Assembly (NCBI RefSeq): GCF_000026545.1
Contig: NC_011603.1
Origin: Escherichia coli O127:H6 str. E2348/69
GTDB taxonomy: Bacteria > Pseudomonadota > Gammaproteobacteria > Enterobacterales > Enterobacteriaceae
DNA length: 64,000 bases
Reading direction: 5' to 3' (one strand)
Shown: in pieces, positions 20,301 to 24,115 of the stretch
Layout of the letters: every line of letters starts with the position of its first letter
Numbering within the stretch: position 1 is the stretch's first letter
Made by a program: the position numbers

Positions 20301-23300
20301 TGTAAAACACCGGAATATATGGGGGCAGGAAGGCTGGTCAAAGAAAGGAAAAAAAGTATCCGGGGGCATTTTTACACCTATAAGAAATCGGTAAAAGGGC
20401 GAAAAAAGAAACGTTCGAAAGGTCAGCGCGGTTTAAACAAAACAGACAAAGAACAGAGCAAATCAGCAAAAGAAGCCTGGTTGATCTTCAGCAGAACAAA
20501 TGACTTCAGAGCGCGAGAAATCATCAAGTTATACAGTCGGCGAATGCAGATAGAGCAAAACTTTCGTGATGAAAAGAACGGACGCTTCGGGTTTGGTCTT
20601 CGGGCCAGCAAAAGTCGTTCAACAGGGAGAATTCTGGTTCTGAGCCTGCTGGCAACGTTGAGCACTATCGTAATGTGGTTACTCGGTTATCACGCTGAAA
20701 ATAAAGGGTTACACCAGAAATATCAGGTTAACAGCATTAAATCCAGGCGGGTTATCTCATATCTGACGTTAGCGAAGAATGTTCTTCGACACTCGCCATT
20801 TATTTTAAGACGAACAGTACTGAGCACAGTTCTAAACCATCTGGCTAGAACCTACCGAAATATAGTGCTGGTTTATTAGCAGTAATTTTGTGAGGATCCC
20901 TCAGCCCGGAGGGCTGCATTACCCAATATCAAGAGGGCTGAAAGCCGAGCAGATGCGGGAACTGCTGAATGGTCACTACATCAGCCACCGTAAAAACATC
21001 CTCATCACCGGCCCGACAGGAAGCGGTAAAACCTGGATCGCCAATGTTCTTGGCGAACAGGCTTGTCGCCAGAAAAACAATGTTCAGTACTGACGTGCAG
21101 GTCGCCTGTTCGAAACGCTGGCTCAGGGACGGGTGGATGGTAGCTGGCTTAATCAACTCAGGTTACTGCAGAAAACAGTGGTGTTAATCCTGGATGATCT
21201 GGAGCCTCTGACAAACCAGCAGTGCAATGACCTGCTAGAGATCGTGGAAGACAGATACGAACAAAGCAGTACCATCGTGATAAGCCAATTCCCCGTAGAT
21301 AAATGGTACGGACTGATGGAAAACCCGACGACAGCCAACGCAATCCTAGACAGGCTGGTACATAACGCACACAGACTGGTACTGTAGGGTGAATCAATGA
21401 GGAAAAAGAAACCGGTAATGGAAGAGGTGGAAAAAACAGGGTAAAAGAAAGATGATAAGTTAACGCTTGGAGTGATCGAACGGGATGCAAATCACTGATC
21501 GATGTTCCATGCGAATAAGTGATCGATCATGTCGGAATATGCAAAAACCCGAAATCACCAGTTGCCACATTGAACGGCGCTGGTGATTTCGGGTTCGTCA
21601 CTTTATGGATACCATCAACCCATTCCCCGGAGAAAGTATGGGCTGGCTAAAGTGTAGCGGCATTAAGAGCAGTTATTTAGTATTTTAATGAGTATCGAAT
21701 CTTTATATTTGCATCATTCCGTTGTTGGTCCGCCTTCTGACAAGCTGTGTTGGCAGAAGAAACGTCGTTAGCGGTTCCTATTTTGTTACTACCTAGATAT
21801 ATATCAGGTTTTTGATAATACATGGTCCCCATATTCATACTGGCATATTTGACACAGGTGGGAATGTTGCTGGTTTGAACTTCAATAACATAGTATCTGC
21901 TACTTGATACAGCCCAAATTTGAATTCCCCTGCCATTCTCGTCGACAAGCTGTGTGGTGCCATCCCCTTGATTTATAGTAGGTATTCCTGTTTTTAGAGA
22001 TACAGCTTTAATAAAGTTGCCTATGTTACCGTCAAAAGCAGAAGCGTTGCTCGCAATGAATCCATTAGTGGCAGCAATAATAGTTTGCAATCTGGATATG
22101 CCATCATTTACTTTTTTATTCTCAATTGAATTGTTATAAAAATAAAGGACTGCAGCAATTACTACAGCTGATAAAGCTAAAACCATTGCTGATTCTATTA
22201 GTGACAGACCTTTTTCTCTTGATTTATGTTTTTGGGTTGATGTTTTTTTGCTCATTGCTTTGCATATAGTTTAGTGGAATAAATTCTATAATTGAGCATA
22301 TCTCATTTGTAGATAAAACAGAGCAAAAAAATAAGTAAAGATATATAAAAAAGTGAACTGAACCGCCCCGGTTTTCCTGGAGAGTGTTTTATCTGGCGAG
22401 TAGGCAACCTGACGGCTGCGGCTTGTCATAGTCTGAAACTACCGCTATAAAAACAGACCATATCATTGTCTTTCAGGTGGTTATATGGCCCGCTCAGCCC
22501 CCCGGTTGCAATGGCGGGTGGTTCCCTGTGCAGGCGGACCTGACAATGAAGCCGGACTGTTTTTTCCCGACTTCGGCAGTGCCGCAGATTACTGTATGGA
22601 GAAAGATATTCCGTACCTGTTTGAAGAAGATGCCACCGGCAATTATGAAACAACCGTATGGATAGTCGGTGAGCCCGACGGTAATGTCACCATGATCCCC
22701 ATGCCCTGGAAAAATTTCCTGTCCGTGTGCACGATACATCCCTTTATCTGTCCTGAGTACGGCTCCTCGCATCTGCCCCCCTGCATAATTCATGCTTCCC
22801 CGTTTTGCCGATATTTTTCAGCAGGGAAACCGCTGGCTAAACTGGCTGGAGAAGCAGCCGGAAGGTTCAGTGCGTCCGGTAGTCATTGAAACGGTGACAA
22901 AAATCATGGCGTGCGGGACCACGCTGATGGGCTACACCCAGTGGTGCTGTTCATCACCGGACTGTTGCCATACAAAGAAGGTCTGCTTCCGGTGCTCCTG
23001 CCCACACTGTGGGGTGAAGGTTGGCGCGCAGTGGATACAGTATCTGCTGAGTCTGGTTCCCGACTGCCCGTGGCAGCATATTGTGTTCACGCTTCCCTGC
23101 CAGTACTGGTCCCTGGTGTTCCACAACCGGTGATTACTGGCAGATGTGGAGCCGGGGATATTCACGGTAATCCACACATGGGGCCGGGACCAGCAGTGGC
23201 ATCCACATATCCATTTATCGACAACGGCCGGTGGTGTGACGTCAGGTCACACCTGGAAAAACCTTCATTTTTACGCCCGTAAGGTGACATGTGGCGCTAC

Positions 23301-24115
23301 CGGATAACGCGGTTACTGTCACGGAAATACCCGGAGCTGGTGATACCGGATGGGCTGGCAGCAGAAGGAAGCAGTAAACGGGACAGGAATCGCTTCCTGG
23401 ACATACATTACCGCCGTGGCTGGAATGTCAACGTATCCCGGGTGATGGATAACGCCACACATGTGGCGGTGTACTCAGGCTCTTACCTGAAAAAGCCGCC
23501 GGTACCGATGAGCCGGCTGGAGCACTATGCCAGTCAGGATGAAATCGGGCTGCTTTATAACAGCCACCGTACAAAACGGGAAGAATACCTGTTGATGAGT
23601 GGTGATGAGTTCATGGAAAGGTTCTCCTGGCATGTGGCGGATAAGGGGGGGCCGCATGGTGAGGTTCTACGGGTTCCTGAGTCCGGCGAAACGCCGGTTG
23701 CTGGAAGAAGTGGTGTACGTCATAACAGAAACAGTGAGAAAAACGGCGAGGCAAATCACCTTGAGAGGGATTTACCAGCGGTTACTGAAGGTTGACCCGC
23801 TGAAGTGCGTGCTGTGTGGAAGTCAGATGCGTTTTACGGGGCTGAAGCGGGGATACCGTCTGACAGAGCTGGTAGTGATGCATGAGCCCCTGGCCCGGAT
23901 GCGGTGGTGCGGCTGAGAGCCGCAGAGAGGAAGTTGCGTTCATTTTACGGGAAATGGAGCAAAAAACCATCACTGATACCTAGTATCAATCAATGTCAGC
24001 AATAATAAGTGGCGATACCGATTACGTGACGTTCTGGTCGTGCTGAATAAACATTCGTTATTCGGAATTTTTTTAATCTTTTTCGGATTTAAATTCCTAT
24101 TGATGAACCTCCTTA

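Follow-up and report, generated by a model that had tools for sequence, protein, structure and literature searches.

The DNA considered here is a 64,000-nucleotide (nt) stretch of Escherichia coli O127:H6 str. E2348/69 (contig NC_011603.1), referred to as the window. The locus of interest in it is a solitary type IVb pilin gene that lies close to a degraded member of the IS91 family of insertion sequences (IS). Over the region examined the window is 100% identical to pMAR2, the EAF plasmid of E2348/69 (EAF, adherence factor of enteropathogenic E. coli, EPEC; accession number NZ_CP059841.1), and likewise to pMAR7 (NC_010862.1), a Tn801-marked pMAR2 derivative; no difference between this EAF plasmid and the window was seen. 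The locus sits in an IS-filled stretch with perABC on one side and the FII replication region on the other. RefSeq annotates remnants of IS256, IS4, IS21 and IS91 in this stretch together with toxB-like (DUF3491) fragments, and a further IS21-family remnant carries the RefSeq label Mu transposase domain protein. An earlier note on this DNA had offered IS91 transposition as a route by which the pilin gene could have been captured. The adjacency of the two probably arose as ISs inserted one after another in the accessory region of the EAF plasmid, which is full of them, and is not the result of capture. The features of the locus are as follows (window positions and strand; bp, base pairs; aa, amino acids; ORF, open reading frame).

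21542–21677, + strand: IS630-family remnant, transposase 3′ end and right end of the element; boundary accurate to about 2 nt.
21677–22255, − strand: solitary bundlin-family type IVb prepilin gene, 192 aa (WP_000039533.1; RefSeq “PilW family protein”).
22256–22358, no strand assigned: the pilin gene's own upstream DNA, 103 bp, AT-rich, the sole native flank left.
22359–22396, − strand: stub of an IS629-like (IS3-family) right inverted repeat, positions 1–38; the remainder of the element is absent.
22397–24104, + strand: IS91-family element, 1708 bp compared with about 1828 bp in intact ISEc37; both ends present, coding capacity destroyed.
22397–22450, + strand: terIS end; CGAG at 22397–22400 is 5′-CTCG on the bottom strand.
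22485–22889, + strand: divergent orf121-like ORF, 134 aa; its translation was compared with Orf121 of L003, L004, L005 and L019.
22792–23916, + strand: tnpA pseudogene (HUH/Y2 transposase); RefSeq “IS91 family transposase, frameshifted; internal stop”.
24040–24104, + strand: oriIS end (...GGAATTTTTTTAATCTTTTTCGGATTTAAATTCCTATTGAT), aligned to the right ends of L003, L004 and L005.
24105–24108, + strand: GAAC, the IS91 target tetranucleotide (5′-GTTC on the bottom strand), abutting oriIS.
24113–24572, − strand: GNAT toxin gene, 3′ part only, belonging to a backbone DUF1778/GNAT toxin-antitoxin module; this is the oriIS-side flank and is not IS629.

L numbers designate the loci compared. The locus is already present in public annotation, the pilin as a PilW family protein and the IS91 element as a pseudogene. 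What is new relative to the public annotation of pMAR2 is the ends of the IS91 element, the IS629 stub and the IS630 stub. Literature searches yielded no publication on the solitary pilin; the pMAR7 sequence paper (Brinkley et al. 2006) was outside these searches.

Pfam matches (Zn_Tnp_IS91, Y2_Tnp and Bundlin) bear out the initial reading of the locus as an IS91-family element beside a bundlin-family pilin. The pilin matches Bundlin (PF05307) at 3.6e-6 and 27.7 bits (cut-off 22.3), and N_methyl at 18.6 bits, which is under the cut-off of 21.2. The junction of leader and mature N-terminus is ...REKG/LSLIESAMVLAL (here and below a slash marks a junction or cleavage point), with Glu5, a hydrophobic mature N-terminus and Cys134/Cys172. 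Thus the protein shares with bundlin and other type IVb pilins a prepilin leader, the Bundlin domain of Pfam and two C-terminal cysteines. BfpA (window positions 2616–3224) has the same 12 mature N-terminal residues, LSLIESAMVLAL. It shows 47% identity to the solitary pilin over the N-terminal 57 residues, and the rest is not alignable. In contrast to BfpA, the pilin is encoded by a solitary gene, about 18 kb from bfpA, and is a member of a separate family with the C-terminal ending IK(I/V)RY-L-Y. Full-length identity to other plasmid pilins is 35%–42%.

The ends of the IS91 element were set by the points at which three independent ISEc37/IS91 copies from unrelated plasmids (L003, L004, L005) diverge from their flanks. 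These copies are mutually alignable only from CGAGTAGGCA... to ...TTCCTATCGAT, with GAAC next in each, and their ends project onto window positions 22397 (CGAGTAGGCA...) and 24104 (...TTCCTATTGAT). The interval 22256–23916, previously taken as the element, begins one base after the pilin start codon and finishes with the tnpA stop; it takes in 141 bp of non-IS91 DNA and leaves out the oriIS end, 188 bp long. The corrected element boundaries are one practical gain of the analysis.

A study of IS91 Orf121 (PMC13181058, 2026) defines terIS as the left, orf121-proximal end, with the cleavage site 5′-CTCG, and oriIS as the right end, where an adjacent 5′-CTTG or 5′-GTTC is essential. By these definitions the supposition that the pilin lies beyond terIS, on the orf121 (5′) side, is correct, since the top strand has CGAG at 22397–22400 and GAAC at 24105–24108. 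Alignment of the end motifs with the copies in L003, L004 and L005 gave no sign of the opposite orientation. The right junction reads ...CCTATTGAT/GAAC at 24104/24105. GAAC is likewise present 3′ of the right end in L003, L004, L005, L027 and L045, and CAAG is found in its place in L046.

The window copy shares with IS91/ISEc37 the left end CGAGTAGGCA... (terIS, 5′-CTCG on the bottom strand) and a right end of the form ...TTCCTAT(T/C)GAT followed by GAAC. Also shared are an orf121-like ORF upstream of tnpA, the Zn-finger and Y2 transposase domains, and the lack of inverted repeats and target duplication. By inspection, no terminal inverted repeats or target-site duplication were seen in the window copy (flanks ...ATCTGG and GAACCTCC..., ends CGAGTAGG... 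and ...CTATTGAT). Over the first 102 bp the window copy shows 90%–100% identity to six other copies at their left ends, and the subterminal palindrome of terIS (GCAACC-TGAC-GGCTGC) has one mismatch relative to ISEc37. The predicted terIS and oriIS hairpins, of which the terIS hairpin is weak, have fold energies no better than those of shuffled sequence; because shuffled sequence folds as well, the energies are uninformative.

The distance from the pilin start codon to terIS is 141 bp, the last 38 bp of which are the IS629-like stub. The pilin gene was earlier placed immediately outside the element, but 103 bp of its own upstream DNA and this stub intervene. Positions 22359–22395 match the outer IS end in L009 at 37 of 37 positions, and among 4,097 E. 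coli genomes the 37-nt IS629-type end occurs at some 25,000 sites; there is no other IS629 sequence on pMAR2. Base 38 of the stub is G in the window and in L006, and T in sister plasmids and intact copies. The junction in L007, L010–L017 and L042–L044 is ...ATCTGT/CGAG, i.e. ...TTTTATCTGT/CGAGTAGG. Intact IS629 reads ...ATCTGT GAAC TCAGG, where GAAC occupies positions 39–42. Hence terIS is joined to IS629 position 38, exactly 5′ of IS629's own GAAC. By simple arithmetic, a junction exactly 5′ of GAAC or CAAG would arise by chance about 1 time in 128. As terIS abuts the base 5′ of the canonical target GAAC, the left junction points to an ordinary targeted insertion of IS91, the recipient being an IS that the pilin gene already had as its neighbor.

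The transposase was described from the outset as frameshifted and degraded, and this holds. Four ORF pieces to the right of the pilin bear Zn_Tnp_IS91 (PF14319, 2.1e-14) and Y2_Tnp (PF04986, 4.9e-11 and 1.2e-12) domains, and a tblastn search with ISEc37 TnpA recovers the gene as three segments, distributed over two frames, with 87%–92% aa identity. The tnpA sequence has one in-frame stop (TGG to TGA at 23131–23133), two in-frame deletions of 9 bp (3 aa) and 51 bp (17 aa), and two frameshifts, near 23286 and 23645. Judged from its sequence, tnpA is clearly non-functional. The TGA of orf121 that normally overlaps the tnpA ATG is gone, and the ORF continues 97 nt into tnpA. The overlap of orf121 stop and tnpA start that characterizes IS91 proper is therefore absent from the window copy. 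The orf121-like ORF has no Pfam match; Orf121 stop-loss forms of 133 aa have been reported (PMC13181058).

The arrangement had been considered probably fixed. The inactive transposase and the fact that this is the only IS91 copy on pMAR2 are in keeping with that view. The element is non-autonomous, but both of its ends are intact, and it could in principle be moved if transposase were provided in trans.

The sequence of the IS91 copy is a mosaic to which at least three isoform lineages have contributed. Blocks 22397–22498 and 22792–22950 are 100% identical to L005 (p542099_1), block 22499–22791 (the orf121 segment) resembles only L046-type elements (89%–91%), and the oriIS-proximal 200 bp are 73%–78% identical to every reference fetched. 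Overall identity to ISEc37-type copies is 88%–92%, with the window copy 120 bp shorter. It differs from ISEc37 in having an orf121 segment of another isoform lineage (L046-like) with the stop lost, a tnpA pseudogene, and the divergent last 200 bp. The mosaic make-up shows that recombination between isoforms has shaped this copy, and a hybrid origin of its two flanks is thus plausible without one-ended transposition.

On its other side the pilin gene is bounded by the IS630-family remnant, which is 76%–91% identical to annotated 3′ ends of IS630/ISSpu2-family transposases. The element went into the TA of TAA, the stop codon of the pilin gene, which the first IS base restores (window 21670–21682). 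The IS630 end aligned to L038 reads ...GGGCTGGCTAAAGTGTAG CGGCATTA.GAGCAGTTATT/TA. L023, which is without the IS630 element, parts from the window right after TAC TAA. The truncated inner end of the remnant displays a small fold-back duplication (palindrome at about 21547–21590) that is present in L019 too. The native pilin island is thus only about 680 bp. Its 103-bp upstream part is conserved in L019 and L018 and, over 25 nt only, in L023; a promoter scan detected no consensus sigma-70 promoter upstream of the pilin.

Seven PLSDB plasmids, and in addition a dozen contigs from draft genomes or metagenomes, carry a block in which the IS630 stub is followed by the pilin, the IS629 stub and the left end of IS91. 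Every copy lies at one and the same per-linked position on EAF-type plasmids. In some of these the IS91 element has been cut by later ISs, at about position 116 of the element and at 22636, 23004 and 23104. A preliminary reading of pEC404/03-1 (L006) as having an intact IS3-family element in place of IS91 was wrong; the IS629 stub and the IS91 left end are both present, and its IS91 is cut at 22636 by ISEc31. The earlier note had suggested looking for the same pilin-IS91 junction in other genomes, and the search led only to this one plasmid position. Searches of 72,556 plasmids and 5,426 complete E. coli genomes, together with protein-context look-ups, gave no second location of the pilin and IS91 unit.

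Three more diverged relatives show the pilin gene in other settings. L019 (GCA_946056635.1) has a pilin with 88% aa identity; of the same IS629 repeat it retains 48 bp, GAACTCAG among them, and IS91 is absent from this site. Because L019 keeps a longer IS629 stub without IS91 there, the IS629-pilin arrangement is older than the IS91 insertion. A different IS91 copy (91.6% identical to ISEc37) lies in L019 212 bp past the pilin 3′ end, within a longer IS630 remnant. The pilin of L018 (GCA_021486155.1; 81%) is without IS629, has no IS91 on its contig, and is located between inverted IS1-like ends. No IS91 is present on the 1.5-kb contig of L023 (ERZ809529; 70%). A pilin gene found elsewhere without an IS91 neighbor had been named as evidence that would speak against capture, and L018, L023 and, at the site itself, L019 are such cases.

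In L018 (contig positions 1–1100) a 775-bp pilin segment is flanked by IS1-like inverted ends of about 95 bp, an arrangement reminiscent of a composite transposon. At 171 aa the gene as called is short at its N-terminus, and the upstream leader region is in another frame; for these reasons the L018 copy may be a pseudogene. An ORF upstream of the pilin in L023 was considered as a lytic-transglycosylase remnant and rejected.

These observations can be arranged as a series of four steps. In the first, a solitary bundlin-like pilin gene would already have existed as an island of about 680 bp, with an IS630-family element in the TA of its stop codon and an IS629-like element 104 bp upstream of its start codon. 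This step may be regarded as established, as both stubs are common to the diverged L019 lineage. In the second, an IS91-family element would have inserted at the GAAC at positions 39–42 of the IS629 right inverted repeat, so that terIS was joined to position 38; for the left junction this too may be taken as demonstrated. In the third, the DNA on the oriIS side would later have been replaced, such that the element now abuts GAAC and the GNAT 3′ end. The mosaic make-up and the absent IS629 remainder suggest that recombination of two IS91 copies, or a deletion, was most likely the cause. Decay of tnpA would have followed. The junction footprint, the relatives that are IS-free or differently arranged and the restriction to one genomic site indicate that IS91 came late to a region of accumulated IS remains. 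Nothing indicates that the window copy moved the pilin. The picture is a rather ordinary one of a long-standing solitary pilin hemmed in by three different ISs, of which IS91 came last.

Several observations weigh against successive insertions as the whole explanation. The oriIS flank consists of GAAC and the GNAT 3′ end and does not continue IS629; for this reason simple insertion in situ is by itself insufficient. The GNAT flank has 92%–99.8% identity to GNAT genes of many plasmids, and the homology always begins at 24107–24111. Three histories fit this flank: a deletion, recombination of two IS91 copies, and one-ended transposition of IS91, stub and pilin to a site beside GNAT. An empty target site would show the DNA left of the block contiguous with GAAC-CTCCTTATTGAG, or GAACCTCCTTATTGAGAG after DNA that is not IS91. 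Such a site was not found in the GNAT loci of other plasmids or in pattern scans of genomes and metagenomes. The GNAT flanks in three plasmids (L024–L026) end in IS1, IS4 or unrelated DNA without a match to the window. Two exact-pattern scans on genome contigs gave nothing, and one metagenome scan gave only a pMAR2-like contig. The reciprocal junction would be oriIS/GAACTCAGG, i.e. ...CCTAT(T/C)GAT/GAACTCAGGCTGCC, the latter being the rest of IS629. It was not found in PLSDB with a chimeric query of oriIS and IS629 positions 39–138, which gave only two-piece, non-contiguous matches. In addition, insertion in a donor replicon followed by one-ended transposition predicts exactly the same sequence, and IS91 left ends that face a pilin gene are commoner among related loci (see below) than had been guessed beforehand, which is a lead and not a result.

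The wider pilin family bears on where the gene came from. Tblastn and protein searches show homologues of 35%–42% identity on Escherichia, E. albertii and Salmonella plasmids, and 13 independent loci were sampled. The members (L018–L034) form a distinct plasmid-borne bundlin-like family with the shared motifs GLSLIESAMVLA..GVLYYYN and C..YA(S/T)LN(M/L)GT and the C-terminal IK(I/V)RY-L-Y. There are at least five clades, and most members are solitary genes in IS-rich DNA. In a metagenomic locus (L020) and in an E. albertii plasmid (L027/L036), a complete bfp-like operon ends with a homologue of 40%–42% identity. The order in L020 is pilin-TcpQ-secretin-PilO-ATPase-T2SSF-ATPase-peptidase-SLT, followed by the homologue. 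This suggests where such pilin genes originate.

Accordingly, the solitary pilin has been considered as the distal gene left over from a second bfp-like type IVb operon, or as an accessory pilin that followed the lytic-transglycosylase gene, the rest of the operon having been erased by IS traffic and IS91 having played no part in delivery. The operon-terminal homologues, which come after prepilin peptidase and lytic transglycosylase genes, and the motifs common to the family favor such an origin, as does the selection on the gene. Substitutions were compared between the window and L006, L007, L010, L014, L019, L018 and L023. The ratio of non-synonymous to synonymous rates (dN/dS) between diverged lineages is 0.2–0.38, and thus the solitary gene has been under purifying selection. 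Nevertheless, all four clade-A lineages (window, L019, L018 and L023) are already solitary, and the 103 bp upstream hold no trace of a neighboring pilus gene. The Rep3 genes near L018 and L020 are 27.5% identical and synteny is not conserved; pilin-Rep3 synteny was dropped as support for an operon relic on this account. An origin of this kind is offered tentatively, as a possible but not the expected one, and it is compatible with successive IS insertions. Within the near-identical EAF-plasmid group there are 6–11 non-synonymous and 0–2 synonymous changes in the pilin gene, which fits either relaxed or diversifying selection, the numbers being too small to separate the two. It is the solitary pilin, and not IS91, that deserves experimental attention.

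If the capture proposed in the earlier note were true, a rolling-circle IS would have moved an adhesin subunit gene independently of its assembly operon, a matter that bears on the diversification of EPEC adherence factors. In its most specific form, the proposal is that IS91 inserted into IS629 beside the pilin in a donor replicon and that a later round of transfer from oriIS missed terIS, carrying IS629 stub, pilin and further DNA into an ancestor of the EAF plasmid at a GAAC beside GNAT. Failure of termination at terIS is known to co-mobilize DNA beyond terIS, and one-ended events made up 11%–53% of IS91 transposition in the assays of the Orf121 study (PMC13181058). Also in favor of the proposal, the pilin is on the terIS side, the terIS hairpin has a mismatch, no IS629 remainder is on the plasmid, and the oriIS flank (GAAC and GNAT) bears no relation to the terIS flank, which a transfer of this kind would lead one to expect.

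In the sampled loci, IS91 left ends face a pilin gene in 4 of the 13 (window type, L019, L021 and L027), at distances of 28–701 bp, and an intact right end facing a pilin within 700 bp was found in none of the 13. A four-of-four terIS-facing orientation has only p of about 0.06, however, and IS91 is common on these plasmids (1,931 PLSDB records). Further, the left boundary of the supposed mobilized segment is not identifiable, and neither a second location of the unit nor an empty site turned up in the searches described above. An E. albertii clade-C pilin is in the same convergent position next to perBC without IS91. A candidate one-ended footprint in the E. albertii plasmid (L027/L036), an IS481-family gene cut at oriIS, was not sustained; the second half of the gene is not present beyond the operon in the first 50 kb of the 56.6-kb plasmid.

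Established one-ended units, such as IS1294-blaCMY-2 and those of ISCR type, are recognized by the same block of IS and cargo at several target sites. The window block resembles them in having the candidate cargo on the terIS side (pilin start codon 141 bp left of terIS) and an oriIS that abuts a GTTC-type tetranucleotide. Unlike those units, it occurs at one per-linked position, has the stub of another IS between cargo and terIS, and has a cargo that is also found without the IS: in L018 and L023, in L019 at the junction, and in 7 of the 13 pilin-family loci, which are free of IS91 within the fetched flanks. The geometry would allow one-ended transposition, but capture by IS91 is not supported: the terIS junction is located exactly 5′ of the IS629 GAAC, and the unit is confined to one plasmid location. 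Delivery by one-ended transposition is considered unlikely. The broader idea that IS91-family elements have repeatedly carried solitary bundlin-like “accessory” pilins between Escherichia virulence plasmids, with pMAR2 as a decayed example, would explain terIS ends facing a pilin within about 700 bp in four contexts, but it is quite improbable.

In L021 (GCA_904842535.1, contig positions 7467–10736) two pilin paralogues that differ from each other lie no more than 2.5 kb apart, close to psiA and hok. Interspersed with them are three separate pieces of IS91, namely element positions 309–439, positions 1438–1560, and a left end 28 bp past the stop codon of the second pilin. L021 is the most suggestive case for an involvement of IS91 with the pilin family.

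The E. albertii plasmid pEA18_3 (L028, positions 3995–6539, compared with window 17075–22255) shows a pilin of another clade (39% aa identity), convergent with perBC and without IS91. The per region has 91% nt identity to that of the window. This suggests an old linkage of per and pilin with allele replacement. An IS256-like element lies between per and pilin in L028 and is inserted at the same point (window 18946).

The pilin gene also overlaps a region long used in diagnosis. The primers for the EAF probe (PMC4594896) map to window positions 20794–20816 (+ strand) and 22029–22046 (− strand). One lies 100 nt upstream of the classic EAF diagnostic probe, which is 1 kb long and termed “cryptic”, and the other 82 nt downstream of it (PMC4594896). 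The span of the polymerase chain reaction product is thus 20794–22046 and the probe corresponds to approximately 20917–21947. It follows from the primer positions that the EAF probe is made up of IS4, IS21 and IS630 debris and about 270 nt of the 3′ end of the solitary pilin gene. A nucleotide-level map of this diagnostic region is a second practical gain. A 1652-bp deletion has been described in O119 (PMC4594896); it corresponds to window 19859–21509, and this segment is missing from pEC404/03-1 (L006).

On the oriIS side, the DUF1778/GNAT module is split. Only the 3′ 460 bp of the GNAT gene remain (window 24107–24572) and are fused to foreign DNA, which gives a 190-aa ORF. DNA that normally comes after the antitoxin recurs 5.7 kb away (30258–30512), with toxB-like and IS21 debris between. 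In pRM10386-2, a plasmid of enterohemorrhagic E. coli O26 (L045, positions 2548–7310, compared with window 24105–26564), an intact IS91 has its oriIS side facing the same toxB-like fragment. The homology to this fragment begins at the identical point, window 24572, and 946 bp of unrelated DNA lie between IS91 and the toxB fragment, replacing the 467-bp GNAT fragment. The neighborhood of IS91 and toxB may therefore be an old one.

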